Positions 6,357-56,444 of a stretch of DNA of 64,000 nt are shown here, piece by piece (position 1 is the stretch's first letter; each line of letters opens with the position of its first letter). The notes under the pieces were generated by a model. The model made no database searches. It saw only the letters and a list, made by a program, of their open reading frames with translations, and was not told where the DNA came from. Location: contig CM120643.1 in the NCBI GenBank assembly GCA_051362555.1, positions 25,176,848-25,240,847 of the forward strand. Direction: 5' to 3'. The translations under genes were made by a program, and so were the position numbers. This stretch comes from Lingula anatina. Lineage: Eukaryota; Animalia; Brachiopoda.

Positions 6357-8038
6357 ATTTAAACAGTAAAAGAACTGGCAGCTCTTAATTATGTAGTTAA
6401 TACTGAGTAATACTGTGTAAATACTGAACAATGTGCCAGTTGTAATAGCTAACATACTTGTAGAATTTCCTTCACTGAAAATTGACATGTTCTGCTCCAG
6501 ATGATGGAGGGGAACATGCAGACCCTGAGTTTGGGCAACTGGATGGAGCTACCTGGGAAACCTTTCAGAGAATGGCTCAAGAAACACAGGGCAGCAAAGA
6601 CAAAGTGAGTCATTCATAGAAATATGATGGGGCTCTTAATATTCCACGATTTATAGGTTCTACCAGAAGAGTTATTTTTGTTTTATAATGCAATAATTTA
6701 GAATTAATTGCAGTCATTTCAAGCATAAATAGAAAATTAAATATGTATTAGTGTCTTGCATTAAAAAAACTATTTTTATTATTTTTATTATGTTCACATT
6801 GAGGAATTTGCAAAAGACATCCATCTTAAAGTAAACAGATCTTTGACTTGTTCTGTTAACAGTGATTAAGATACGGGTTGAAAAATGACAATACAAACTA
6901 GGTACTGCTGAGTTAATGTAACATAAGACAAACCCTATCAGGAAAATTCATCTTGTGCAATTCTAGACATAATAACTTCATAACTTTCAGCTGTAATAAT
7001 TATTTCCAACTTCTATTCATTTACAGTGAGGAGAATGGCATCAGTGACTACCCTACTGACCGTGCCAGTATGACAGACCTCAGAGACTACTACCAGGACT
7101 ACGTCCACTCTAATGGCCTGACTGACCACTTCCAAAGCCATTCCACGGTCACCTCGGTCAGGAAAGTGGTGGACACAGAGACAGTGGTCAACATGGAGAA
7201 CGGAGAGGTGGAGGAACTGATGACCACTGATGCCGAGGGCAATAAGTCCCCTCTGTGGGAGGTACGGGGTTTCCACTTCAAGGAGGAAGACGATAACGAG
7301 AATGTCGAGATTGAAGAATTCTGTTACCGTGCACCTCACGTTGTCTTGGCGACAGGATCATATGACCTCCCTAACAGACTGCATGTGGAAGGAGAGCAGT
7401 ATCCTTTTGTTCTACACTCCCTCCCAGAGTTGGAAGAGAGACTTAACGTGGGCGACATTGGACCAGATTCCGACCCTGTGATGATAGTGGGTTCTGGTCT
7501 GACTGCAGCAGATGCCATTTTGTGCTGCATGAATGCATCCATACCAATCGTGCACGTGTTCAGGCGGCAGCCAGACGATCCATCTGTGATATACAACTCG
7601 CTCCCACCAAAACTTTACCCAGAGTACCACAAAATACTACAAATGATGAAGGGCGAGAAGAAAGACTACGAGTGCTACAAGCCATACGCAGAGTACTCCA
7701 TTCTTCAGTTTGGTGTGGACAACCAAGTTCTCATCAAGGGCACGAAGCACAAGTGCACCCCGATGATCAAAGTGTCCTACGCGGTTGTTCTGATTGGCTC
7801 AAAGCCAGACCTGACCTACCTCCCCAACAGCGGCCGAGATCTAGGTGTGGTGCCAAACTGTTGTATCGACTGTAAGCACAACCCCCTGGATCTGGATCCG
7901 TACACTTTCCAGAGTAACTGTGAGACGGGGTTGTTTGCCATGGGGCCCCTCAGCGGGGACAACTTTGTGAGGTTCATTCAGGGGGGCGCTTTAGGCATCA
8001 CAAACTTCTTGTGGAAGAAGAGGACAGAGTCCTTATAA
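2346..8038 (+). CDS. OSGIN: Oxidative stress-induced growth inhibitor (OSGIN1/2-like) FAD-dependent oxidoreductase; coding exons 2346-2445, 5674-5819, 6030-6221, 6501-6604, 7027-8038
   Basis: GT-AG exons join in frame to give VIIIGNGPSGITLSYMLSG...EGRSTNPVAVLLDSLNHPGAD...HVVLGKTLPGGAWQ...TLSLGNWMELPG...VVLATG...VGSGLTAADA...GLFAMGPLSGDNFVRFIQGGALGI, motifs typical of the OSGIN family. Acceptor at 2340-2341 implies an upstream non-coding exon (candidate donor near 1053). Confidence 0.9.
6283..6354. repeat. (TC)n microsatellite in an OSGIN intron; similar simple repeats at about 5909-5937 (TC), 13394-13444 (GA), 40072-40136 (TA), 54414-54490 (TG)
   Basis: Directly visible dinucleotide runs; they explain the ERERER, SLSLSL, YIYIYI and CVCVCV ORFs. 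Confidence 0.95.
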
Positions 8039-10519: not shown

Positions 10520-11132
10520 TAAGTCTGATGGTATACTCTCGGACATAATATTTATTATGTCCAAGGTATACTGTATAAATGTCAGTAGAGTTCCCACCGG
10601 CACTGATTGTCCACCCACTGGGCTGTCCCTGTGTCCAGTGGATGTAGAGTGAAGTGTACCAGTAGTAGAGAAGAGGGAGGTATATGTGTATACTGAAACC
10701 CAGTGGCGGATTTAGCCCCCCCCCCCCTCCCCCAACCTTGTTTTTTGGTCCCCTCTTGAAATTAGAATTCTGATTAGCTTAATCATAGTTCTAAAACGTA
10801 CCAAATGGCTCCGTTCGCCCTCTAAAATACCAAAATTTTCGGGGCCCTTCAGCCGGCCCCGAACCCCACGTCAAGTGAGAGGGGGTGGCTTCGCATCCCC
10901 CCTTCAAATAATCCTGGACACGCCCCTGCTCTTACCTATTGGCAGAGTGCCAACAGGCAAAACTGTTCACTATGGTACAGGTAATATTGAACAGGTAACA
11001 ATGACATGTAATTAATAAAACTACTTGCAACACGTGAGTGCTCTGAAGCAGAACAGAGCATTTCATCGCCTATATAAGCATCTTCGTGGACATTTTCATG
11101 TATTTTGGGGCCGATCATTCGTGAGCTCGAGC

Positions 11133-13390
11133 ATGATGATGTTCCTCCTCCTCCTTGGCGTTCTTTCCGTCCTCTCCGTCGGGACTTACGGGCAGAATAC
11201 GAAAGATGCCGTGGGTATTTTCAACAGGAAATACGATCTTTACCTTCTAACTATACAGATTGAGAAAATGCGTGAAAAGCTGTTTAAAGATTGTCCGGGG
11301 TTCTTCAGTCAGCCGGAGAACGCAAAAAAACTGGCGCAATTCTTTGGGAAGAGAGAGGTGGATCCCGCCAACCTAGATCTGAAGGTGGAACTCGCGCGTC
11401 ATTCGTTGGACAACATCAAGCAAGAATATCTGAAGTGTATCAAGGGGAATTCACAAGTTGTCACCACAAGTAAGTTCACTGCTGAAGAAAAAAGAAGACA
11501 GGTTGGTTACAATAATCTATAATATTATTACGAGTCTGACAGCAGTAATAACGTTGAAAGCTGGGTTGAAATCTGTGATATGCCCACATGTACTATATAT
11601 TGTATAATAGTACCACCAGCTCAAGTACACATGGCGGTACAGATGATTTTAGTCTCAAACTGTATCGTCCGCCGGTTTCGCCGCCACGTCACCGTTACCG
11701 CTTTTCCTCCTAGACAACAACAGCCCAAGAGCCCGTGTATCCATCGCTTGTATGTAGGTCACATATAATCCCAACTCTATCCGTGCGGATTTTGGGCTTT
11801 GTCGGTGCACCGGTCTAGGGTTGGCTGCCGTCCCAATGCACCCTTGTCCAAAATTTGCAAAATTAAATGATAAATATCTCTTAAACCGAGGGCATTATGG
11901 GAAAATTTACAATAGATGGCTGAACGAAAGTCATTTGTGCAAATTTCAAATATGCCCTTGGATTTGATCCATGAACTTTTATTTTAAGGTCAAATGGACC
12001 AAAATTTTCTAAAAATGAGTTTTATATATATATATTAGTGCCGATTTTCAGAAACTACAAAAACCTAACCTATAAAATTATCGGCAGGTATTGCACTTAC
12101 ATGTAAAGTCATCTTTCAGGTTTCTGAGTTTGGGGTCAATTAGTGCATTTTCACGGGAGAAGCAGTCACTGGATTCCGAAACTGAAAAGTCTCTCTAATT
12201 CTGAACCCGTAAATGCTAGAAACTTCGTTTTTTGCATGTTATATATCTTGTCAAGCGCAACACTGGAAGTGGTGTCCTTTTTGGTTTTTTGTTTTCCATA
12301 CGGTTTACGAGTTGCCCTATATCAAAACGTACAAAGTCGCAATATTCATTGGTTAAAATAAAATGTAAACTAACTCTAAAATGAGCAGAAATATGCCATA
12401 GTTACTCTTGAACTTGAGTAGGAAGTCATATTCTGTCAATATGCGATCTTGAAATTGACCTTTGACCTACTTTTTGCCATGCACTGAACTTTGCAAGTTT
12501 TCTGTCCCGTATTATCTTGAAAACTGGCAGACTATTGACCTTGAATGGGAAGTCATATACTGGCAATCTAAATGTGACTTTATAATTAACCTTTGTCCTA
12601 CTTTTCACCATGAGCTGAACTTTGCAAGTTTTCCATCCATTATATCTTCAAAACTGGCGGAGATACGCCCATACATTGTAGCTACTATTGAACTTAAATA
12701 GGAAGTCATATATTGAGTCTTCCTGTGACCTTGAAAGACCTTGAAATTGACTTTTGACCTACTTTTCGCCTTAAATCGCATTCACAAATTTGGATTTCAC
12801 CTTTTACTTTCCCCTATGATTTTCCGATAAATTGTAATTTTCAACCAAAAAAAATTGAGAACTCTTATTTAATGCATTTTCTAGAGCTTGTCAAGCACAA
12901 CATGAATTTACTTCAGTTGGTGGTACAATACCTGGAGGCGGTATTGCCTCTGATCCTTCAGTTTATTATCATTAAGCAATATTTGGATGAATGCAAATAT
13001 TAATCAATATTTTTGTTCACTATGCAACCATCAGAAATAAATTGATGTGACACCCCCAGCATCGTCAACATAAAGGAATGGAATACGATAAAAAAGTATT
13101 GATTATATCTCCAGCTAATCGAGTTATATCGATCTAATAAAAACTTAATTAACACGATCAAATGAATTCTCAATAATTAAAAGAAAAAATGTTATATTTC
13201 AGTTAGAGATAATTGCATCGGTAACAGCTGTAGGAACAATGGCACGTGTATTCCCAATGAGAAGAATTACACCTGTAGATGTCTACCCGGGTACAGCGGA
13301 GATAGGTGTGAGAAGGGTGCGTGAGTCTTTTGGGCATAAAAGATATTCAGGTGGCGAACACTCGTGACATTTGTTCTGAAAAGGGAGTGT

Positions 13391-13447
<57 letters not shown>

Positions 13448-14462
13448 CGCATTTAGAAGAAACCGTGGGGAGACAAAGGAATGGGCGGTCTTGCTTTCAT
13501 GTAGGGTACACCATATGTGATCTGCGAACCAGTAAATTCGGGGATAATCTGTTCTGAATGCGATCTTAGTCCAGTAAACGAACAACTGAGGTTGGGAAAA
13601 AAAACGTTAACTAGGGTTTCTAAACTGAATCCGGTCCAGTTATGGGCCAATATATCCCAGATTATTTCCCAACGGAATCCACCCATGGTGCCAAAATCCA
13701 AAATGGCCGCCAATGCATAGGGGAGGGTATGTAAATGGGCATGTCACTTTGCCATGGGTGGATTCCGGTGAGAAATATCTGGGTTATGTTGGCTCATAAC
13801 TCGACCAGATTCAGTTGAGAAAGCTTTGTTGACGTTTTTTCAACTTCAATGGGGAAATTTCGTTCGTTAACTGGACTATACGTTGCTTGGATTCCAAAGA
13901 TTGACCTGCAATAAGAGTGTGCATTTTTTTACTCAGCCTGCGTTTAAGGGTATAACACGAATTTAATAACATTTTTATTTTATTTTATTTGTTTTAGAGA
14001 CATTTATTAGTTAAACAGTATACTAGCAGAGTGTCAATTCATGTCCATATCGATTAAAGATGATGCTAGGTTTTCTTGAAAGACAAACCAAACGAAATGT
14101 GCCGTATAATTTCAGTGAACAAGAATCCATGCGGGAGCATTCTCCACCATTCTTCCGTGCGCCAAGACAATAACACCGGCTTCACTGTACCGGCCGGTTG
14201 GGTTCTCTGCTACATCGATAGCGATGACGTCACATACGCACAGACCCCCTGCATAGACCTCCTCCAAGATGTCTCCAACTACCAGACTTTCGGATGCTGG
14301 CATGGATGCTCCGGATCGGCCAAGGGCCCCGCCTATGCCAGTAATAATGTCATAGAGAAAGCCTGCAAGCCGAATATCCAACAGACAAACAAGATGGGTA
14401 CTTGGTGCAGCAGTGGAACTCGTCAAACAACATTTGGCGTTTGCATTCAAATGAAAGATTGA
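11133..14462 (+). CDS. Uncharacterised secreted protein, copy A (265 aa: signal peptide, helical pro-region with GKR site, EGF domain, 8-Cys C-terminal domain); exons 11133-11469, 13203-13316, 14116-14462
   Basis: TATA (tatataag at about 11071), hydrophobic signal MMMFLLLLGVLSVLSVGTYG, phase-1 introns, EGF exon CIGNSCRNNGTCIPNEKNYTCRCLPGYSGDRCE. Frame is intact and conserved with copy B. Confidence 0.82.
11640..12965. mobile_element. Insertion in intron 1 of copy A, Helentron/HINE-like with internal degenerate tandem repeats (about 12410-12770)
   Basis: Absent from the paralogous intron of copy B; recurring ggaagtcata / gacct(t)tgacctactttt / tgaactttgcaagtttt / aaaactggc blocks. Boundaries approximate, classification inferred. 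Confidence 0.45.
13567..13878. mobile_element. Foldback MITE with long (about 120 bp) imperfect inverted arms, TA-flanked
   Basis: tagtccagtaaacgaac...cggaatccacccatgg versus ccatgggtggattccg...gttcgttaactggacta; absent from copy B intron 2. Confidence 0.75.
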
Positions 14463-14814
14463 AGCAATCAAATGAAATAAAGCATGCTGTGCATATAAAC
14501 ACACAGAAATAACGGAAATGTATCATTTCCTTGAATTGTCTAATTATATTACGTCAGAGATGTGATAGAAAATAAAATGAAACTTTTTCGTCAAGGTATT
14601 TTACTTACTGTTAACTTCAAAATGGAGAAAAGTAAAGGCGGTTTTAAAATGTCTACTTTCCTATTAAAGCAATGTTGTTCTAAATTGATACTGAAGGCCT
14701 AGCGTCATACTGCCTCCACCACCACCACCCCCTTCCAAAAATGAATAATTGCGCTGCGTGATCAAACTCAATTAGTCTGATTAGTCATGTTTGGTTTCAA
14801 TTGATTGATAAAGA

Positions 14815-16247: not shown

Positions 16248-17167
16248 ACCAGCCATCACGCTTTAAATTTCTATACCTAAAATACCTTTAAATAATTGTT
16301 TCACAACAAGGAAAACTGCATAATCACTTATACTTACGATGCCATTTTAGATGTAACACAGTCACTAGTGTACTGATTTAATCGATTTCAGTTGTCATTT
16401 CATTGAACGAAGGCATTATTTTGGCTTTTCAAAGGTAAAATGTGAACTAAGCATTTGAGATCAATCGCTTACATGGGTTTTTAAAACCCAACGGTGTCAT
16501 TGGCGTTGTAATTGTGTACGTAAGTGCTCAGGTTAAGGAGATAACTGGGAATAATTTTTTTTACTCCTAAAACTCAATCATGACGTCATAAAATAACGTA
16601 AATATTAGAAAAAGAAAAAATCAACTATGTGAACGGCAAATAATAAGCCTTATTCATCCAAGATAAGGCTTTAAAAGTGGAATGGTGGTCATGTTATGTT
16701 TATATTGATTTTATATTGGATTCTTTCTGTCAAAATGTGCCTCTTGTCAAAGCAAAAAACATCTAAAATCGGGCTTTGTGTGATGTTAATGCGCATTTGC
16801 AAAAGAGTGTTTTACCGTCATGTAATGTTTTTTTTTCTTTTAGTAAATTATCTTCACTCTTTAACACCTTTTTTTGGCGTGAAAAAAATAGCTTATGCAC
16901 TTATAACTGGCAATAAAACAGCTGCATAGTAATTACACAGTATGATCGTTTTCGGGCTGCAGAAGTTTTGCGGTATAATTTTAAACAACGTTAAGTTGGA
17001 CCAAGAAGGGTTTACTTAAAACTGTTGAGAACAGAGCTCACGGCTTGACAGATAAATATATATATAGGTTAACTCTCCGGGGTTAATCCTAGCGGTTGAC
17101 GTATACTTATATAAGCATCTTCGTGGACATTTTCATGTATTTTGGTGCATTCGTCAGCTCGAGTAGA

Positions 17168-18758
17168 ATGATGTTCCTATTTCTTTTTGGCGTTCTGTCC
17201 TTCCTGTCCGTCGGGACTAACGGGCAAAATACGAAAGATGCCGTGGGCATTTTCAATAGGAAATACGATCTTTACCATCTTACTCTACAACTTGAGAAAA
17301 TGCGTGAAAAACTGTTTAAAGATTGTCCGGCGTTCTTCAGTCAGCCGGAGAGCGCAGAAAAACTGGCGCAATTCTTTGGGAAGAGAGAGGTAAATCCCGC
17401 CAGTCTGGACATGGAGCTGGAGCTCGCACGTCATTCGCTGGACTACATCAAGCAAGAATATCTGAAGTGTATCGAGGCGAATTCACAAGTTGTCACCACA
17501 AGTGAGTTCTTTCCCGTCAAAAAAAAAAAAAAAAAAAAAAAAAAAAGACAGATGGGTTACAAGAATTTATAATATTATTTCGATTCTGTAGGCGGTTATG
17601 TTGAATATTGGGTCGTTGGTCTGTTGAAATGTCCATATGCTCTATAGTGTATGATTTACAGTCATTAACGCATCTTTTAAAATTCTACTTATTGTTTTAT
17701 TTTGGTGGTGGTGGTGGTGGGTGTGTCATATTCACGTCTGACGATTGCAGAATGTACTAAAATACAAAACATCTAAACTGCAGCATGAGTTCTATCGATG
17801 AGATAAAACAAATTTTACAAAAATGAGAAAAAGAAATCTAAATCAATAAAAGAGATTGTTATATTTCAGTTAAAGATAATTGCATCGGTAACAGCTGTAG
17901 GAACAACGGCACGTGTATTCCCAGTGAGAAGAATTACACCTGTAGATGTCTACCCGGGTACAGCGGAGATAGGTGTGAGAAGGGTGCGTGAGTCTTTTCG
18001 GCATAAAAGATTTTCAGGTGGTGGCCCCTCGTGACATTTATTAGGACAGAGGGGTGTCTGTCATTAGTGTCTCGCGATTATCATTAAACTAAGGTTGTTT
18101 GGCGGTTGGGGAGAGGCGGTAGAGAGAGAGAGAGAGAGAGAGAGAGGACATGAAGAAGATTAAAAAAGAAGCTGCACGTCATCGTGCGATTATTTATTAA
18201 GCTACTATTAAAAAGCAGCATTATTCATGGTGGCAGCATTTTCTTAATATTGCTCTTTTTTATAGCATGAATTTATTTACATTTTTTATTTGTTTACAGA
18301 CATTTTCGGTTTTCCGTATACAGTGTCCATATCGATCAGCGTGCTGCAGGATAATGCTGCTAATATTTTTGAAAGACAAACCAAACGAAATGTGCCATAT
18401 TATTTCAGTGAACAAGAATCCATGCGGGAGCATTCTCCACCATTCTTCCGTGCGCCAAGACAACAACACCGGTATCACTGTACCGGCCGGTTGGGTTCTC
18501 TGCTACATCGATAGCGATGACGTCACATACGCACAGACCCCCTGCATAGACCTGCTCCAAGGTGTCACCAACTACCAGAATTTTGGATGCTGGCATGGAT
18601 GCTCCGGATCGGTCAAGGGTCCCGCTTATGCCAGTAATAATGTCATAGAAATGGCGTGCAGACCGAATATCCAACAGACAAACAAGATGGGCACTTCTTG
18701 GTGCAGCAGTGGAACTCGCCAAACAACATTTGGCGTTTGCATTCAAATGAAAAACTAA
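17168..18758 (+). CDS. Uncharacterised secreted protein, copy B (265 aa); exons 17168-17501, 17870-17983, 18409-18758
   Basis: Same exon structure and phases as copy A; all cysteines, GKR and the EGF domain are conserved; open frame. Confidence 0.82.
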
Positions 18759-18925
18759 AGTAGTCAAATGAAATAAAACATGCTGTGCACATACAAATGC
18801 ACGTGCACGAGGAGAAGGGAAATGTCTCAATTCCTTGAATTGTGCAATTATGTTACTACAGAGATGTGATAATAAATAAAATAAAATCCATTTGTCAAGC
18901 AGACAATCGAAAAACATTTTATATT

Positions 18926-43821: not shown

Positions 43822-46800
43822 TCAAAAATTTCTGTTATGCTCCTCTGGGTTAGAGGCTTCTGGGTCGGCCTCTCTGAGACCCTCGCTGACAGGACCCCTG
43901 CCCAGTAAGGATAGCATGGCCTTGGCCTCCGGGTCTACGTCCAGTATACTCTGCTTTTCCTGAAAATATGGGGCATTCTAATTACATTATGTAGTTATTA
44001 TAATTATATGTATGATAAATGTTGAACAGGTGAAGCCAGTGGTCAATCCAGTCCCAGATTTCATTGTAAAATGTGGGTAAAGTTCAAGGTCAAAACTGAC
44101 TGACACACAAGTATATGTGGATATAATATCTATACTGAGCGTGCACAGCTCTTGTCATTTAGAACATTAACAATCACGTGGTTTTTGGAAATTTGGATTT
44201 CTCGTCTCACTCATTGAAAACGGTATCCATTTGGATACCACAAAACCATAACACTTAGATATTGAACACTCACTTGATTTCTGGACTAAGAAAGTCATAC
44301 TTCACTCATAAAATATGTTATCAGGTGTTCTTACAAAATATCACTGAGTCAACAAAAACAATTGGCAGTCATCACATGTAATTTACCTGTGGGCCATCTT
44401 CACCCAGTTCCTCTCCAGGTTTCTTCCCCACGCCCCACACCTCCAGTAGATCAATCTCAAAGTCTTTCTTCATAGAAAGCTGTGGACTCTGATATGTTGT
44501 GCAGAGAGGTTTGGCATAACTGTATCCCTGACCATAATGGCAGTCCAACCAGAGTCCGAAGTGCTCCATCTGACCACCCATACCCTACAATAATAATAAT
44601 AATAATGATAATAATAATATCCCTGGCCATAATGGCAGTCCAACCACAGTCCAAAGTGCTCCATCTGACCACCCATACCCTACAATAATAAATAAATAAA
44701 TAAATAAATAAATCCATCGACAAAGAGTGACAATTTATTTCTTCTACACATGTAGCTGCAACCTTGACAGTAATTTTATATTTATGCTTGTTTCTTCTTG
44801 CTGGTGTTCATAGTTAGATCTTTTTTTGTTCCCTTACATTTCAACCTGAAAACAATATGCCTCCTTATGTATATAAAAAGGAGAAAAAGTGCTGCTCTCA
44901 ACATTACATAACTACTGCATGAACTTGACACAACTGACAAAATCAAGTTGATACCTAACACAACACAACCAAAGAACTAATCACAACCAACACAATCAAC
45001 GTCACAGCTAACACAATTTCACGTACTCACCAGACCATTTGGCATCGTCTGCTGGCTCTGGTTGAGATACATGTAGTGATCATTGTAACCACTGGCGTAA
45101 TAGATGGCATAATGGGGCAACAGGTGAAACAGGAAACATCTTGAGGTCCCTGAAGAGAGAGATTTTCATGAGAAAATGGATCTCAAAAATTATTCCAGAA
45201 TGCTATGGTACAATTTTCCTCAAATTTCGACAAAGTAGGGATATCTTTTTTCTTAGTGTCTGAGTGCAAGTTATACAATATCATTATCCGTTTAAGCAAG
45301 TTTTCCATTTCTTAAAAAAATTATTCTATCATAAACAATTAAAAGCATGCATCTGAAATTAATTTTATCAATGACTGATTATCAATACTGCAACAATATC
45401 ACAACTGGTATTGGTACTCTCCCAATATGCAAACACCAGATTTTGCAATCCTGATTCCACTGGACTAGAAAAATCCCTAGCTTCTTCATGTGCTTACTGT
45501 AAAAACACATTTATTACTTAAACATCCCCTCTACCCACCTACAAACTGTGGTCTACACTCCCAGCCTGTTGATGCAAACCCTCCAAACACATAACCATCT
45601 TTGTCTCTGATAATAATCACAGTGGGCCCTTGCTTTGTTATCCTCTTCATTAGGGTTGCAAAACTTTCTCCATGAGTGTCGCTGTAGAAAAGTTGCCTCC
45701 ATTTTCCCCTGTGTTCTGCAGGGATTACGTGGTTGATGTACAGCAGAGATGGGATGTCTAGCATTGTGGAGGTCTTAGACCAGTTGACGTCGATGGCATA
45801 GGGTATTTTGGGAGAGTGGAAACTGGCAGCAGCACCCTCTTCTACCTGTCATAGTAAGAGGTTTAAACATGCCATTATAAAGAGATATGAAAACATTGAT
45901 GAAAATCTAATATGTGGCACACTCGAGTCTTTTCTTATTGCCATACCACAAGGGAGTTAAATTCTAGAAAAATTATTCCACTCAAAATTCATCTTATGCA
46001 TGATGCAGCGAACCCTAAGAAACATTTGTCACCTCACAAAAAATAAAGAGACTTTAAATTGGCAAAAAAAATTGTTCCTAAGGAGACTATAAATGTATTT
46101 CGTACCTATGAGCCATGAGGTTTTGACCCTTCATCAAATGGCTTCAATTATAGGTAGAAAACACATTCGTCTCTTCTACTAGAAACAAATTGCTTTTTTA
46201 CATCATTTCACAAGAGACAACAAAAAACCAATCACACAACCAATAAAATACATTCATTTTAATCTATGAAAATCTACTCACATAAGAGACAGTGAAGCAG
46301 GTGTACATGACGTGGTCCATAATGTGTAGGAACAGAGCTGCAGTGGACAACCAAGTCTCTATGTCACCCTCCGTATACGTCACTCCCTCAGGTACCAGAT
46401 CCATGGCAGAGCCCTCCACTTTCACTGAGAGAAAAGGGTTACGTGTCTTACTCTATAAAATATACCTATAATACATGTACCTATTGTGATTGTATTCAGC
46501 ATGTTTTGTTGTAAAGATATTCACACTCTGTTAATGCTTTTGTGATCGATAATGCACTGAAAACATCCATGACTGAAATAAAGTTATAAAAGGTCAAATA
46601 TGATGTATATACAGAATTGATGTTTCAGCTCAGTTGAAAACACCAAGATTAAGTCACAATTTTTTGATAAATTAATGCCAATTTCACATATTTAACAAAT
46701 GTTTAAGGCAACAGAATAGCATGAACTTACTACCCTTAAAAATTAATCTTTTTAAAAATCAAAACAAGTTTTTAAGTAAAAACATACAAATTAGCTATAT

Positions 46801-49800
46801 CAAAGTTAAAACACAAATTTAACTATATCAAATTACAATTTACACAGAAAAACAATACCAATGTTCATAGTGATTATTTTTGGAGATGTGAAAATGAAGA
46901 AGCTATCATGCATTAGATCAGAGGAACAGTGGTAATTTTTCTTTACATCTTAATTTTTTTTTTTTACAGTAGCAAGTGTCATGCATTAAAAAGTGGCTCT
47001 TATCTCACTTTGCTTTAGGCTGCAATGTCAAAGAGCCAGGATGAGCAGGAACCAGAAATGAAATCTTATGTATGTATAATATAATATCAAATCTACAAGC
47101 AGATGCGCTAAACTGCATACGGTTGAAATTTGAAATTTTTGCATCTCTTGATGATATTATAATGTTAGGTTGGCAAAAACTGGGATTCAAGCAATAAGGA
47201 TGATAATAATAACAAAAGCAACAACGACAACAACAATAATAATAATAATGATTATAATAAAAAATAACAACATAAAATGTCATTAAGCCATAAACACTGA
47301 TTATTACAACAAAAACAACAAGCTGTTAAATCTGAATGAGGGGTATGATTATAAAATGTTCAATCTTTAAAAGTTCAGTGCCCAGGGTTGCCAATATGAT
47401 CATTCAGTACATATAATTCTCAACATGCTACACTATTTGAGTGTCAGTTTACAAACAGCTGAAATACACCTGGAAACAAAAGACATCACTGACAAATGTG
47501 TACTGTAACACTTGGCAAATCTGAGTTCAACAGGCAGCAAATATAGTAAATACTCCATCTTTTCAATGGGGGTGGGACCCGTGGGGGTGGATTTTACAGA
47601 TACTGAATTTTAAGTAATGATTTCTTAAAATAAGAACATTCCTATGGAGTGGTAGCAACAGAATAGAGAATAATGAGCATACTGTAGTTTTCATTCAAAG
47701 GTAATTGCTTACTAAGAGTACTTAGTCAGATGTTAGATGTAGCCAAAGGCTATGTTGCATCAGTACTTACCTGGAGAACATGTCATTCTCTATATGCACA
47801 CTGTGTAGGCCTATATAGTGAATCATTCAGACACTGGACTTCACCCTGATAGGAGGTGTGCAGGACTTTTTATACCTGAGGTGACTTTCATTTATTTACA
47901 TATATCAGTATTTCATGATCTAGTTCTTTATTGTGTATTTCATATTTTTCCATTTATTATATTACTGAGTTTACTAATAGTTTGTTTGTATGCATTTCAG
48001 CCTTCATTGTTTCCAGTTAATAAAGATTGGAAATCAAATAGTGTCCATCTTATCTATGAAGGCTCAGGTATGACCATAGTCTACCGGTAAACAGTCCATC
48101 CTACAGGCCAGCATGCCAGTTGTAAAGTGCCCATTCCCAGACTGCACTTATGAGACAGAAGATGTGGCAGATACCATTGTCAACACACTATTGACAATAC
48201 ATGCACAAAGCCATAATGCCACTTCCTCTCAGTCATCTACAAAGGTCAAAACTGACAAGATTCGTCGCCCCACAATATCTACAGCTGGTACTAGTGAAGA
48301 TTGGACTTACTTTCTGACAAGGTGGAAAGAATATACCATAGCAACCAAAATTACTGGCCAAGATCGTGTAATACAATTACTGGAATGCTGTGATGAAACT
48401 CTTAGGAAAAATATCACCCGCTCAGCTGGTGGAACTCTTACAAACAAAAGTGAAGAAGAGGTACTATCTGCTATCAAGAGACTGGCAGTACGTGAAGAAA
48501 ATCCCATGGTTGCCCGAGTCATTCTACATGAGATGCGGCAGGACAGAGAAGAACCAATTCGTCAGTTTGGGGCAAGAATCAAAGGTCAAGCTAGCATTTG
48601 TAAATTTACACTTAAATGCCCTAACTGTGAAACAGATGTAGATTACACAGATTGCATATTAAGGGACATTTTAAGTCGTGGCATAGCCGATAATGAAATC
48701 CAGCTAGACCTGCTTGGAAATATGAACCAGAACATGGACCTTGAAGATGTGTTCAGATTTATTGAATCTAAAGAATCTGGGAAACGTTCATCAGCGACAT
48801 TAAATGCTTCCGAAGGTGCCCATGCCACTAGCTCGTACAGACGCGCTCAAAGGTATGCAAAGTCTGATAAAACTGAGATATGCAGTTACTGTGGGGAAAA
48901 AGGCCATGGTATTAAAGCACCATTTCGCACACGTCAGAAAATGTGCCCAGCATACAACCATATCTGCAAACACTGTGAACGCAGTCACCACTTCGACCAC
49001 ATGTGTCGCAACAAGAACAAACCCAAGCTTGGTCCCCCATCTTCATCCAATACCAAAACACAGTCAGTAACTAATCATGGGGAATCTGCTTTTATGGAGC
49101 ATAGCAATGAGTCATTTTATACGCTATGTACAATAGGTGAATTGGACCACGACCGAGCTGCAAATGCCATTGCATTAGATCACCACCTATATAATCAGCT
49201 GAATGACAAGTGGATCAAAAGTAAATCAAGACCTCAACCATATATATCATTACAAGCCACTGTATCCTCTCAAGATTATTCTGATCTTGGCTTCAATGTA
49301 GACCTTCCAACTACATCTACGATGCTCAATGTAATGGCTGACACTGGATGTCAAAGCTGTCTTGCTGGTATTAAAGCAATCCAACCCCTTCAGTTAACTG
49401 AAAAGGATCTCATTCCAGTTAAAATGAAAATGCATGCAGCAAATAACAAAGGAATTAACATTCTGGGTGCTGTAATATTACGATTCTCGGGTGAAGACAA
49501 GCTTGGAAAACACCACACAACGAGACAGATCGTCTACATCACAGACAATTCAGACAGAATATTCCTCAGCAGAGAAGCATGCGTTGACCTCGGTCTCATT
49601 TCCATTGACTTCCCTCAAGTTGGAGATGCTTGTCAAACAGCCGGTGATACAAAAAGATATGAAACAAATGCCGATTGTGAATGCCCAAAACGCCAACCTC
49701 CGCCTTCACGTCCAACATCTATTCCTTATCCAGCAACAGAAGAAAACCGTCAGCGGCTTCAGCAATGGCTTATTGACTATTACAGATCCAGCTCTTTTAA

Positions 49801-52800
49801 CATGTGTACCCACCAGCCACTCACAATGATGAATGGATCCCCTATGAGACTAATGGTGGACTCTGAAGCAGAACCCAAAGCATACCATACCCCTTTACCA
49901 GTACCACTACACTGGCAAGACCAAGTCAAGGCTGGCTTAGACCAAGATGTGAAACTAGGTGTTATTGAACCCGTTCCACTAGGAGAACCAGTTACATGGT
50001 GCCATAGGATGGTCGTTTGTGCAAAGAAGAATGGCAAACTTCGCAGAACTGTTGATCTACAAGCATTAAATGCCCATGCTAAACGTGAAACACATCATAC
50101 TCAATCACCGTTTCATCAAGCAAGATCTGTTCCACAAGGTAAAAAGAAGACAGTCTTTGATGCATGGAACGGCTATCACAGCGTCCCACTTCATGAAGAT
50201 GACAGACATCTCACCACATTCATAACACCATGGGGGCGCTATCGGTATTGCGTTGCTCCTCAAGGATATATCGCTTCTGGTGATGCCTACACCCACCGTT
50301 ATGATGATATTGTTTCCAACATTCCCAGAAAAACTAAATGTGTAGATGATACTCTACTATGGGCAAATTCTATTGAAGAAAGCTTTTGGCAAGCTGTTGA
50401 ATGGTTGGATATATGTGGAAAAAATGGGATAACTTTCAACATTGATAAATTTGTATTTGCTGCAGACCAGGTGGATTTTGCTGGATTCACAATAACAATG
50501 GACAGTGTAAAACCTTGTCCTAAATACCTGCAGGCAATTACAGAATTCCCAACACCTAAAAACATCACAGATGTACGTTCTTGGTTTGGTCTCCTGAATC
50601 AGGTTTCTTATGCCTTCAGCATGGCCAATAGGATGTTACCATTTCGTGAGCTACTCAAACCTGGCACGCCTTTCAAATGGACTGAAGAATTAGATCAAAT
50701 TTTTCAGGAATCCAAACAAGTAATCATCAATGAAATAGAAGAGGGTGTCAAGATATACGACAAGAACAAAACAACTTGCCTAGCCACAGATTGGTCTAAA
50801 AGTGGAATAGGATTTTGGTTATTCCAGAAACATTGCAATTGTATAGTGGCAAAACCATTTTGCTGCAAAACGGGATGGAAAATTGTCCTTGTAGGTAGTA
50901 GATTCACACATCCTGCTGAATCCAGATATGCACCTGTGGAAGGGGAAGCACTAGCCGTGGCTTATGCTTTAGACAAAGCAAGATTCTTTGTTCTGGGATG
51001 CACTGACCTAGTGATAGCTGTTGACCATAAGCCACTTCTCAAAATCTTTGGAGACAGATCCCTGGATGCCATATCCAACACACGTCTCAGGAACCTCAAG
51101 GAACGTACTCTCCGTTACAGGTTCCGTATCATTCATCTTCCAGGTGCTAAGCAGAAAGCCGCAGATGCAATATCTCGTCACCCAACAGGGGAACAGCACC
51201 CACCCAAAATGCAGCTTCAAGATGATATTTCTAGTACGGCTGAATCTTATGACTTACCTTATTCCGCTGACATCTTTCACTCTTTCATAGGAGGCATCAA
51301 ACTAATGGATGGTGTAAATGATTACACTGACATTGAGGAAAATTTGATTGACTCTGCTATTTATGCCCTTGATTCCACAATTAAGTCAATTACATGGAAC
51401 CAAGTTAGGCAGGCTACAGCAAGTGATGAAAATATGAATCAGCTACTGTCAATCATTGAGTCAGGAATCCCCAAACACCGCCATGAATTGCCACCTCCAT
51501 TGCGTGAATACCACCAATTCAGGGAACACATCTACAGTGTTGATGGTGTTATTATTTACAAGGATCGCATTATTATACCACCATGCCTTAGGGAACAAAT
51601 ACTTTCTGCACTTCACGCTGCTCACCAAGGCATCTCATCCATGATATCCAGAGCAGAGGCTTCTGTATTCTGGCCAGGTATAACTGCGGACATCACTGCT
51701 GTGCGTGCAAATTGTAACCATTGTCACCAGATTGCACCATCACAACCTTCTGCGCCACCCTACAATCCCATACCACCAAAGTATCCTTTCCAGTGCATCT
51801 GTGCAGATTTTTTCATGTTTAAGGGTACTCACTACTTGGTCATTGTTGACAGATACTCCAACTGGCCAATTGTAGAATATGCATCTGGAGGATCTAAAGG
51901 ACTAATAACTAGTCTACGCCGTGCATTCTCTACTTATGGGATCCCAGAGGAATTGGCTTCCGATGGAGGCCCTGAATTCACTTCTTCTGAAACACGCAAA
52001 TTCCTTGAAGATTGGGGTGTACATCACCGTTTATCATCTGTAGCATTTCCCCACAGCAATTGTCGCGCTGAAGTTGGTGTCAAAACAGTCAAACGATTGC
52101 TTATGAACAATACAGGACCAAATGGTGAGTTGGACACCAATTCAGTGCAGCGTGCAATATTACAGTACCGTAATACACCTGATCCAGATACAAAACTGTC
52201 CCCTGCAATGTGTATATTTGGAAGGCCAATAAGGGATTTTATTCCAATACTACCAGGTCGATACGAACCACATCCTACATGGAAGTCAACATTAGCAGCA
52301 CGTGAGGAAGCACTCCGTAACAGACATATAAGATCCGCAGATCACTGGAGTGAACACACTAGACGCCTACCACCACTTGCTATTGGAGACCACGTTCGTA
52401 TTCAGAATCAGACTGGTCCGCATCCAAATAAATGGGACAAAACTGGCACTATTACTGAAGTAAAACAGTTTGACCAGTACCTGGTGAAAGTTGATGGATC
52501 TGGACGTGTGACACTACGCAATAGAAAATTCTTAAGGAAATTCATTCCGTATGTGTCATCTCTACCTCGTCACTCTATCATTGATGACCTAAAGCACAGA
52601 TTTTACATACAACAGCCTACAGTCAACAATGACACACCTACATTCAGCAAATTACCAGAACCAGAATCTACCTTATTGAAAAATTCACATGAGTCAGTGG
52701 AGTCGGAAAAAATTGTCACCACAACTCTACCCATAGGACCAAATGAAACTGATGGAAAATGTAAAGAAACAGGAACACTACCTTTAACACAACCATCTCA

Positions 52801-54411
52801 TGAAACTCCTAAAGCACTTCCAAAACCACCACGGATGTTAACAAGACTTTTACCACACAACAAACCCGGACTAAAGGAATCAAATGAAGGACTACGCAGA
52901 TCTGTAAGACTAAATAAAAACTAACTTTAACCGTCTTTAATGTTTAAAAGACTGGGGGGGCATAGAGAATAATGAGCATACTGTAGTTTTCATTCAAAGG
53001 TAATTGCTTACTAAGAGTACTTAGTCAGATGTTAGATGTAGCCAAAGGCTATGTTGCATCAGTACTTACCTGGAGAACATGTCATTCTCTATATGCACAC
53101 TGTGTAGGCCTATATAGTGAATCATTCAGACACTGGACTTCACCCTGATAGGAGGTGTGCAGGACTTTTTATACCTGAGGTGACTTTCATTTATTTACAT
53201 ATATCAGTATTTCATGATCTAGTTCTTTATTGTGTATTTCATATTTTTCCATTTATTATATTACTGAGTTTACTAATAGTTTGTTTGTATGCATTTCAGC
53301 CTTCATTGTTTCCAGTTAATAAAGATTGGAAATCAAATAGTGTCCATCTTATCTACAGAATTTAAAAGAAAGCTACTGTTATAGTTCTATTCTACTGTAC
53401 AGAAATGTTATTTTGTAATTATAAAATAATGTATCTGAAAGTTTGCCCATTGAAAAGATCCAAATAATTACTGTATACAAAGCACTACTTTAAAGAAGCT
53501 AAAAGTTGAACTGGAAGAAACCTCTTGCTGCTGTATCACTGGACCATCATGCTGGAAATGCTGATTTACTTTATAAGGGTATTTTTAGATACAAAAGAGT
53601 AAAAGGAAAAACATAAAAGCTGGTCGATAAACTGCAAGGAGGTCAACAGGGATCATTTGAACATACTGTAGTGGTGTTTGAATTGGAATGAGATGGATTC
53701 CTTATTTTTTTCATTTTAGCTTATACCTTTTCTTTGGGAAGAGGTATGATTGAATACATGTTATTGCATTCATTTTTCAAATGTCAATTTTATTTTAATT
53801 ATTCATTTCCCCTTGCCGTGGGCAATTCTGTGTGCCTGTGAGTATGTATGTGTGTGTAAGAGAGAGAATGCGCGTGTGCATGTGTGTGTGTGTGTGTTAC
53901 CAAGTTCAGAAATGAACCTGTCAAGTATAACCCACTTGAACATGGCAAAGTTTAAAGCAAGCAAGCAGTAGGACAAAAAGCTTTGTACTACCTTCATCAC
54001 TACTTGCAATAGGGGTCTCTGCATACAAGACAACACCAAGTGAAGTGTTAGTACATAACATTATGCAGTATTATTATTCGCATCCAAAAGATTCATTGGA
54101 AGTGAATGATATCATGATAGCATCTCACAAACCTGTGGCTGCACTTTCAAATGTCTGAACAACTGGCTTGGCATCCAGCTCTGATGGGGCAACAGATGTG
54201 TTAAGAAAAACGGGTTAAAAGTTGAGAAGAAGAAAAGATGAAAAAGATGATTTCAGTGGTATTTTCTGAAGACATATATTTGTATGTGTACACTGTTGAT
54301 GCAAGTACTATCAACTAGCTTGACATATGAGTATCTGTGTGTATGTGTTTAGAGGTGTTACCAAAAAATTGCATGACTTCATGCAGAAAGTTTGATAAGC
54401 ATTCTACTTAA

Positions 54412-54491
<80 letters not shown>

Positions 54492-56156
54492 CAGTTCTCA
54501 ATGTCACAATACATAAGACAAGGCAACACAGTATGCTATGCGCACTGACTAAACTTACCTTTATTAAATGTTGACCTGAGAAGAGCCTTGGCCAGCTTGA
54601 GATTAGCTTCCTCTGAAGTAGAGATCTTCCAGGTTTTACACTGAGGGCTTTCCTCAGCAATCTTCATATATGCCTCCACCAGCATCAGATTGAACTACAG
54701 TTACAAGTTTCACAATAAACCATTTATACTTGAAGCAGTGAAAATTTTATTGAGTTTTCTATTTACTTATATATTTATCCAATTGCCTATTTATTAATTT
54801 ATTAATTTAATTATTTACCTATTTATTTATAATTACTTTTATCATTATAATTATTTTAATTCTTATTTACTTATTCACTTTTTTAAAATTTCATCTTTGG
54901 ACAGCTTAATTTAGCTTAATTAAGACTAGGACTTTTCTCAGGACTTTTTTGATGTCAACTAGTCGAAGTAAACCATGGGTTAAAATGTTAAAGACATAGG
55001 CTGCACAGGCCCGTGGCTGGGGGGGGGGGGGGGGGGGGGGTTCAGGAAGAACCGCCCTTTTTGCTGGGAAAAGGTCCACTCTGGGTACAATTCGATCTAT
55101 GTACTTGAGGATTTTATGGTAAAAGTCCACTTTTTCAGAAAACGCCCCCCCCCCCCTCGAAAAATGCTGGCTACGGGCCTGCTGCATTTTAAATTAACTT
55201 ACTAAGTACTGTATGTTTGTATGGCAACTTACACTGACCAGCTGCTGTGCTGTCATGTCTCCTGCCTCATCAGATGCCAAACAATGAACGATACGGCTCC
55301 TCTGGGTAATAGTGCTCTTCAGTAAGTGTGCCATTGCCACAACAAATGTATCATGGGATATGTGGTCATGTTTTGCATGCTTATGATGTCGGAGCTCAGA
55401 GATTGCTTTGTACAGTCGAGTGATCAGAATATCTGGTAGGTACCTGCTTAGATATTTCTGAAATTGCGAATTTAAGTTATCATTATGCAGATCAGTCCTT
55501 TCACATGGCATTCAATGCAATATAAATATAATCTTTATTTTGATGGCTACTTCCATTTAATTTAAATAATAGGATCTTTTGGTGGTGCAATGCAGAAGAC
55601 AAGAGCATGGAGAATACACTTTTTTAAATATATTTATCATAATGAAATTACTAATAGAAGTTATGGATAAAATTTATGCCAATAACAACCTTACAAGACA
55701 CAATAAGGGCATGGGTTTTCCTTACTTAACTTCTTAAAGCTACATATTCCATAATAAATTCTAAATAATATAAAAGTCAAGATAATAAAATTTATTTATT
55801 TTGCCCCCCACCCTCGACTGGTATGATGTGACAGAGAGTTCCCCAAGAAAAAGAGTCTGCTCCCCTTTCATTTGTACAGGTGAGCCTCGCCCTATATTTT
55901 GACCCACTAAGGACAGGCCAACCCTAACCATTATAACTAAATGGAAGGTGGACCTTCTATAACACGGACCCTCATGCAGTTTCGTTACACCTGGCCCTAC
56001 ACATATCTTATACAGTACCTTTAGTTGCTGTTCATTAAAGTGTTCTGTTCCTCCTGATATCTCAGCGAATATCTTCTTGATTTGCTCTTTCTCATAAGCT
56101 GTAAAAAGATTGAGAGAGACTTTCAGCTCTTCGCTTTTACTCTCCGCAATGCCCAT
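43822..56156 (-). CDS. MEAK7: MTOR-associated protein MEAK7 / TLDC1; exons (transcript order) 56156-56019, 55457-55233, 54694-54559, [54180-54133 optional], 46424-46282, 45845-45539, 45149-45031, 44584-44387, 43959-43822
   Basis: N-terminal MG (myristoylation-type), TLDc motifs [82 protein letters not shown], and C-terminal [13 protein letters not shown]...SEGLRE; phases consistent. Confidence 0.92.
47664..48056 (+). repeat. 5' LTR (TATA-like 47812-47817, GT-AG intron 47881-48000, AATAAA 48019-48024)
   Basis: Direct repeat of 52963-53355; TAGA...TCTA termini. Confidence 0.95.
48113..52924 (+). CDS. Gag-Pol polyprotein (1603 aa): Gag with Zn knuckles, aspartic protease, RT, RNase H, integrase
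   Basis: CSYCGEKGH and [14 protein letters not shown] knuckles, ADTG protease, DAWNGYH / PQGY / CVDD RT motifs, ATDWS...EGEALAV RNase H, HAAHQG...CNHC and D..D(SDGG)..E integrase; PR-RT-RH-IN order indicates Ty3/Gypsy. Confidence 0.96.
52963..53355 (+). repeat. 3' LTR (same intron at 53180-53299)
   Basis: Direct repeat of the 5' LTR, preceded by PPT plus ca. Confidence 0.95.
55006..55181. mobile_element. CAGGCCCGT-ended MITE with 5-bp TSD (ctgca)
   Basis: TIR caggcccgtggc...gctacgggcctg, poly-G/poly-C arms, aaaaggtccact subrepeats; second copy at 57562-57757. Confidence 0.85.
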
Positions 56157-56444
56157 GCTTGTGTGTTTACTTGTAGAATATCACATGAATGTTATGAAGT
56201 GTAGTGTGTATAGACGGCTATAGATGGCAGAGCAAACAACATGGTCCACAATCCAAGGTTGGTAAGTTCTGGGATACAAAAAGTACAAAACTTCAAAAGA
56301 AAAAATGCACCAACAGATCCATAAACAAATGTTTATATGATTGTGGATGGGTTTTCTTGCCTATTTTGGTTGTCGAGTCGACTGTAGGGGTCACCTAGGG
56401 TGTGATGAAAAGTTTATAAAAGAGGTGGGGGAAGGGGGGAGCTC

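Follow-up and report, generated by a model that had tools for sequence, protein, structure and literature searches.

How an LTR retrotransposon starts reverse transcription when its primer-binding site (PBS) lacks the TGG of a tRNA primer site, and how it keeps an intron in its LTRs while being copied through RNA, are questions raised by an element in a 64,000 nt stretch of the genome of Lingula anatina (the window; all coordinates are those of the window). The element, at 47664–53355, is an intact Ty3/Gypsy LTR retrotransposon with the following features.

47659–47663, no strand: 5′ target-site duplication, CAGAA, from sequence
47664–48056, plus strand: 5′ LTR, 393 bp, with TA..TA ends, 100 % identical to the 3′ LTR
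47812–47817, plus strand: TATA-like box (TATATA); the spliced read of RNA run X1 starts about 30 nt downstream
47842–47880, plus strand: exon 1, its start placed from one read and from sequence
47872–47880, plus strand: exon-1 half of the predicted self-primer, 9 nt, from PBS complementarity
47881–48000, plus strand: 5′ LTR intron, 120 nt, GT-AG, spliced, from sequence and X1 read depth
47972–47978, plus strand: branch motif TACTAAT, from sequence
48001–48007, plus strand: predicted self-primer, exon-2 half, made up of 6 nt with CA at the end and a seventh base that pairs with the last A of the LTR, from sequence
48008–48036, plus strand: hairpin predicted by the computed fold, with AATAAA (48019–48024) for its loop and stacked on the primer duplex
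48057–48071, plus strand: candidate PBS, starting with TG and lacking TGG, from sequence
48113–52924, plus strand: single intact Gag-Pol ORF, 1603 aa, from ORF and Pfam searches
52946–52962, plus strand: polypurine tract, with a G run at 52954–52960, from sequence
52963–53355, plus strand: 3′ LTR, from identity to the 5′ LTR
53180–53299, plus strand: intron copy of the 3′ LTR, lying 255 nt past the stop codon, from sequence; presumably retained, as the LTRs are identical
53356–53360, no strand: 3′ target-site duplication, CAGAA, from sequence

The identical LTRs are flanked by the same 5 bp duplication on both sides, and the element is young. The order of the Pol domains, RVT_1 (PF00078), RT_RNaseH (PF17917/PF17919), Integrase_H2C2 (PF17921) and rve (PF00665), is the Ty3/Gypsy order of reverse transcriptase, RNase H and integrase, and the LTR pair, polypurine tract and target-site duplication are also as in this group; the LTRs do not end in TG..CA, which is a usual rather than a strict trait. 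No BEL/Pao-type family is among the five Pfam matches of Gag-Pol, nor is a chromodomain (E ≤ 0.001), and Rfam gave two chance snoRNA matches only, neither covering the PBS. The element appears to sit antisense in an intron of a TLDc-domain gene, with minus-strand exons at 44375–45848 and 55764–56180 and a first exon that, by resemblance, we take to lie near 56150. Trapping of this host gene by the window copy was considered and rejected, since the TLDc exons are antisense to the element. At 47761–47775 of the LTR (and again 5299 nt further on) the minus strand, which is the strand of the host gene, matches the 5′ splice-site consensus nearly perfectly, and part of the PBS region (48064–48072) resembles a plus-strand 5′ splice site 40 nt past AATAAA; as such, it could attract U1 and thereby inhibit polyadenylation of the 5′ LTR alone. 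Elsewhere in the window, 6917–8038 is a long exon of a gene of the pyridine nucleotide-disulphide oxidoreductase family (Pyr_redox_3), and 11019–14500 and 17093–18800 form a tandem duplication (85–93 % identity) with two ORF pairs, one resembling a secreted peptide precursor with dibasic sites and the other cysteine-rich, for which Pfam gave no match.

A preliminary description of this locus, made from sequence, claimed that the intron at 47881–48000, repeated at 53180–53299, separates two halves of a 16 nt complement of 48056–48071, and the sequence bears this out, together with the positions given for the TATA-like box (47812), the branch point and AATAAA (48019) and the absence of TGG from the PBS. 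Once joined, the flanks 47872–47880 (9 nt) and 48001–48007 (7 nt) are the exact reverse complement of 48056–48071, and the split in the match falls exactly at the GT and the AG. The final base of the match pairs with the terminal A of the LTR, leaving a PBS proper of 15 nt that is matched by primer pieces of 9 and 6 nt. This match is the best of 238 GT-AG pairs in the LTR with a two-sided match, the runner-up reaching 10 nt; the longest contiguous match to the PBS in the unspliced LTR is 9 nt, and a 9 nt left arm directly at any GT was obtained in 0 of 2000 shuffles. We consider it likely that the host spliceosome completes the self-primer of this Ty3/Gypsy element by removing the 5′ LTR intron, and that the resulting junction primes in cis.

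Support for splicing comes from RNA-seq runs of the same species, seven of nine of which were placed on the window (X6 and X9 were left out), each being read to only 6–26 %, with a threshold of three reads for the table of joints and depth recorded in 20 nt bins. Junction reads had been proposed as a check on the preliminary description; at this threshold and low coverage the 47880–48001 joint is not listed in any of the seven runs, but the depth in X1 forces one split read. Ten X1 reads are placed, four of them partially and of the other strand class; the remaining six, fully placed and of sense class, total 904 letters, none being longer than 151, with 641 letters to the left of a zero-depth gap at the intron and 263 to the right. 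No set of unsplit reads fits the binned depth, and one read split 37+114 over the intron reproduces every bin, including two letters on the AG that is common to the end of the exon and the end of the intron. This read runs from about 47842 (about 30 nt past the TATA-like box) to 48112, and since it reaches beyond the PBS its source is a transcript of the 5′ LTR. Splicing of this LTR's intron is thus seen in PBS-carrying RNA, strictly in one read deduced from depth; the runs are all of RNA, and an intron-less genomic copy could yield the same read. X2 most likely holds two further junction reads, on the assumption that both reads at the LTR start are separate molecules.

Unspliced RNA is also present, with intron-retaining sense-class reads at intron positions in X2 (2), X4 (2) and X5 (4), and in X7 and X8 the majority of LTR reads are unspliced and derive from a variant copy. 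That copy differs by about a dozen substitutions within and close to the intron, none of them listed in the arms or splice dinucleotides, although these are too few to count as conservation. Among the placed reads there is none from a molecule that is spliced in one LTR and unspliced in the other. In two studies, reads from other copies stop at the final PBS base, 48071, in X4 through a joint to 50313 on the opposite strand (3 reads) and in X2 through the end of read depth. This is where a plus-strand copy of the primer would end, which is a weak hint, and the break perhaps reflects a rearranged copy from misplaced plus-strand transfer.

In the cis mechanism that we propose, transcription would start near 47842, the cap-proximal intron of the 5′ LTR would be spliced out and the exon junction would pair with the PBS of the same RNA. 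The element's RNase H would then cut after the CA at 48006, a position suggested by the family-wide end of the arm, such that the primer end mimics the CA of a tRNA against the invariant TG. Minus-strand strong-stop DNA would copy only U5 and the 35–50 nt downstream of the cut before jumping to the 3′ end of the RNA, where a 3′ LTR with a retained intron would serve as the template from which the two new LTRs receive their U3, exon 1 and intron. Selective retention in the 3′ LTR, to which the identity of the LTRs points, might be favoured by an upstream exon of 5 kb and a terminal exon of about 45 nt. An exon junction well past a stop codon leads to nonsense-mediated decay, and RNAs spliced at the 3′ LTR, with a junction 255 nt after the stop codon, would be targets for it. 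The element would thus be regenerated only from RNA that has lost the intron of the 5′ LTR and retained that of the 3′ LTR, and the intron would be kept through the cycle of RNA copying.

The preliminary description placed the intron in the presumed R region; it does lie in the transcribed 5′ leader, but upstream of the putative cut, so that it need not be in an R copied from the 5′ end. It had also reasoned from the presence of the intron in both LTRs that the primer would have to be supplied in trans or by the 3′ end. Under Tf1-type priming, however, the 3′ LTR supplies all sequence that lies upstream of the cut, so that a primer in trans is unnecessary and a single RNA suffices if it is spliced in the 5′ LTR and keeps the intron in the 3′ LTR. 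Against the cis mechanism it must be said that the evidence consists of sequence, fold and RNA reads, neither the primer, the cut site nor strong-stop DNA having been observed, and that a start at 47842 leaves a 30 nt unpaired 5′ tail, whereas the Tf1 primer is described as the 11 bases at the start of the RNA (PMC7175516, in the part available). It is possible that transcription starts instead at A47872, in an initiator-like YYANWYY context, which would remove the tail, but the reads do not support such a start.

The Pol region has 2330 matches among 6954 candidates, the best at 66–74 % identity, and named matches come from Mytilus, Diadema and Actinostola; viral contig scans contained no relative. 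An alignment of 43 proteins led to 77 loci in metagenomes and to 22 in prokaryote assemblies with contamination, and a search of five contaminated assemblies gave nine more loci with one useful row (L106). The loci L078–L099 are animal retrotransposons lying in at least 10 prokaryote genome assemblies, which reflects host contamination. We kept 45 rows plus the window, in which the junction of LTR and PBS is readable, and left out near-identical copies, fragments lacking the 5′ region and rows with no readable junction (such as L020, L031, L044, L045, L069, L071 and L083), as well as L074 and L076, which have a TGG-type PBS; L095 was used in the tree only. The tree is a quick one of 57 rows with a midpoint root, containing only unnamed relatives and no named reference elements, and groups of relatives were assigned by eye.

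Complementarity between LTR and PBS extends through this family. Over the 40 de-duplicated rows, 9–18 nt (median 14) of the LTR arm match the PBS of the same element, as against a median of 3 nt for foreign LTR-PBS pairs, of which 8/1560 reach 9 nt. The contiguous arms of the relatives lie at a fixed 36–75 nt from the PBS, and arms end in AT, nearly always CAT, opposite the last A of the LTR and the TG that follows. Such complementarity is a Tf1 signature, and by this sequence measure the clade looks to be self-priming in the manner of Tf1. Most of the relatives also have TA..TA ends, with TG..CA ends in some deeper rows (L064, L077 and L087).

Two kinds of context are seen at the start of the arm. 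In a group of 22 rows (group A), which with the exception of L005 fall in one nested clade (support 99), 17 arms begin with the A of a YYANW motif resembling an initiator, as would be the case were the RNA's 5′ terminus the primer. YAG is found here in 16/22 rows (mostly as CAGTT) and CTAAY in two; use of this AG as an acceptor in these long-leader rows was rejected, given the 17/22 arms that start at the A of YYANW and the several rows with no AG there. Many group A LTRs also carry, 10–35 nt upstream of the arm, a motif similar to that at 47761–47775 of the window, CCTTACCT, which may be a promoter element. The other 24 rows have YAG within −5 to +3 of the arm start in 21 cases (background 0.19), followed by variable bases, and five of these 21 have CTAAY 18–30 nt upstream. 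Rows of this acceptor type are scattered over the deeper branches of the tree. Three rows (L004, L037 and L082) have contiguous arms of 13–18 nt with neither an acceptor nor the group A initiator context, and are possibly derivatives that lost the intron.

A blind split search over free junctions mostly gave contiguous arms lengthened by random 4-mers, and an acceptor-anchored test, in which the arm is continued at an upstream GT, took its place. The preliminary description had named junction-PBS complementarity in related elements as a check, and 4 of the 12 rows so tested are above chance: the window (0/2000), L029 (8/2000), L033 (9/2000) and L007 (35/2000), the value for L007 being weak after 12 tests. 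A split arm over GT-AG is thus seen outside the window, in L029 and L033, which are near relatives of each other, and on a separate branch in L007, but in 8/12 tested rows it is not above chance. In 5/5 rows with an exon-2 part of at most 9 nt the PBS continues with the complement of AG, the usual end of an exon. Three rows (L011, L012 and L106) have GTAAGT donors and acceptors and no split arm, such that an LTR intron exists in this clade without building a primer. The LTR introns of L011 and L012, which have a GTAAGT donor, contain a second PBS-like copy shortly before the acceptor, about 150 and 130 nt ahead of the ATG, respectively; it is possible that the primer arm is held in a hairpin with this copy as long as the intron is present, as a second route to gating by splicing.

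Ten rows (L035, L061, L062, L055, L078, L015, L008, L073, L077 and L001) have only 32–90 nt from the start of the LTR to the acceptor-like site, where a branch motif, pyrimidine tract and AG take up most of the space and leave little for a promoter and donor. Of the nine that were checked (all but L008), 8/9 lack a GTRA donor at least 45 nt upstream, and in L073 and L077 the PBS would pair with an upstream exon ending in TAAG. Candidate explanations for these short-U3 rows are an outside partner, by trans-splicing or capture of a host exon, or a plain initiator with a downstream promoter. We raise, as a tentative and somewhat doubtful generalization, that a widespread marine-invertebrate Gypsy clade sets a 3′ splice site immediately before its self-primer and that the spliceosome is obligatory for primer assembly in several lineages, the donor lying in the LTR (the window, L029/L033 and L007) or outside it, as a spliced leader or host exon (L035, L061, L062, L077, L078 and others).

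Predicted folds bear on how far priming depends on splicing. The spliced 15 bp duplex has an energy of −25.7 kcal/mol, compared with −11.2 kcal/mol for an unspliced duplex of 8 bp, and in the spliced fold, which has a central duplex with a stacked inner hairpin and outer stems, 14 of the 16 pairs have a probability of about 1.0. In the unspliced fold the 8 bp pairing, between the PBS and the exon-2 piece plus the AG of the intron, has a probability of 0.76–1.0 and coexists with the exon-1 pairing at 0.43; the energy of this bulged duplex is −14.2 kcal/mol. Since this is about as stable as the weakest relatives (L064, L077, L087 and L106, −10.6 to −12.6), splicing may, on these computed energies, strengthen rather than gate priming. 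Of the splice-gated self-priming put forward in the preliminary description, the splicing of PBS-carrying RNA, the LTR-PBS complementarity of the clade in place of a tRNA-type PBS and the split arms of two further lineages are supported, and strict gating would be a further step.

The unspliced 8 bp pairing might itself suffice for priming, and the intron would then serve expression, with the exon-1 pairing an addition that splints donor and acceptor only where a PBS follows, that is in the 5′ LTR, or that separates spliced mRNA from genomic RNA. Although its predicted formation in unspliced RNA, the contiguous arms of only 9–11 nt in several relatives and the three relatives whose LTR introns have no split arm all favour it, we think this unlikely. 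The 9 nt unspliced arm ties with the shortest of the 40 rows, and the 16 nt of the spliced arm fits the family norm; a perfect, register-exact continuation over the junction is needed by a primer and not by a splint; and the reads of other copies break, as a weak further point, at 48071, the end of the spliced duplex, and not at 48064.

A spliced primer could also act in trans, as a separate RNA that primes unspliced genomic RNA, being either an LTR-only transcript (from a solo LTR, a 3′ LTR or a 5′ LTR with premature polyadenylation) or the second RNA of the particle. The two identical introns would not have to be spliced differently, spliced LTR-only RNAs are described as common in maize elements (bioRxiv 10.64898/2026.05.08.723830, in the part available), and the likely spliced X2 reads, none of which goes beyond 48071, may be contained within the LTR, so that this explanation stays alive. 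It is nonetheless quite improbable, since the spliced X1 read itself carries the PBS, with an intramolecular duplex predicted at a probability near 1, and since the fixed distance of the relatives' contiguous arms from the PBS is a cis geometry. Priming by a tRNA of the host, or by a fragment of one, with a junction match of no consequence, is barely credible: tRNA priming is the rule for LTR elements, but this PBS has neither TGG nor an Rfam match, the PBS varies between families and tracks each family's own LTR, and the split arm has a chance of less than 1 in 2000.

We return to the junction priming in cis, for which the closest known system is that of Tf1, in which the RNA's first 11 bases pair with the PBS, RNase H cuts between bases 11 and 12 (PMC7175516), and the RNA forms a three-duplex structure (bioRxiv 10.1101/2022.12.06.519325), according to the accessible parts of both sources. 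The Lingula element resembles Tf1 and Tf2 of Schizosaccharomyces pombe and the Tf1/sushi chromoviruses, as described there, in lacking a tRNA PBS, in having a segment of its own LTR that pairs with a PBS adjoining the 5′ LTR and in having predicted flanking stems. It differs in that the primer is not the contiguous 5′ terminus but is split 9+6 by a 120 nt spliceosomal intron, probably beginning about 30 nt after the cap, as well as in its lack of a chromodomain match, its TA..TA ends and the marine-invertebrate hosts of its clade. Self-priming is also predicted outside the Tf1 clade, for Tcn1 (gypsy) and TAR/Houba/Osr-1 (copia), with no mention of splicing in the accessible text (PMC6317226). 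Canonically spliced introns within LTRs are reported for maize LTR retrotransposons, as the first evidence of biologically relevant LTR introns; these are long and occur in non-coding LTR transcripts of unclear role, with no link to priming in the part of the preprint available (bioRxiv 10.64898/2026.05.08.723830).

The paired Gag zinc knuckles of the element look similar to those of Mag-lineage Gypsy elements (Mag, SURL, C-clade and MolGy3/11). A single ORF, short LTRs and a 5 bp target-site duplication, as in most Culex Mag entries, agree with this likeness of features; the Culex elements use tRNA-Leu, -Ser or -Arg, unlike the self-priming proposed for the Lingula element (PMC3286476, in the part available). 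Cer1 has trans-spliced transcripts and yet a tRNA-Pro PBS, as far as the accessible text goes (PMC3315495), and the available main text of mollusc and annelid surveys (PMC6238403 and PMC8556966) does not contain the words 'PBS' or 'primer'. The preliminary description knew of no precedent, and our literature search, outside which lie subscription papers, Repbase entries and supplements, likewise found no description of a splice-built primer. What is new here is a probable splice-junction primer in a Gypsy element, with RNA support for the splicing, akin to the self-primed reverse transcription already known.

Reverse transcription normally erases introns, and an element in which the 5′ intron is spliced and the 3′ copy retained would escape this rule. 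Intronlessness is one mark by which hosts recognize retroelements (HUSH, in human cells and not in Lingula; PMC8770142, in the part available). A primer tied to a splice junction would make splicing a checkpoint for replication and would be a third primer source beside tRNA and the contiguous self-primer, and it poses a test of how two identical introns in one RNA come to be treated differently. If the tentative generalization to the clade is true, an element that replicates through RNA keeps a cap-proximal intron for ever, mimics a host gene towards intron-sensing silencing and copies only correctly processed RNA. More broadly, a large invertebrate Gypsy clade appears to be self-priming, and such elements would escape annotation by tools for which a tRNA PBS and TG..CA ends are obligatory.
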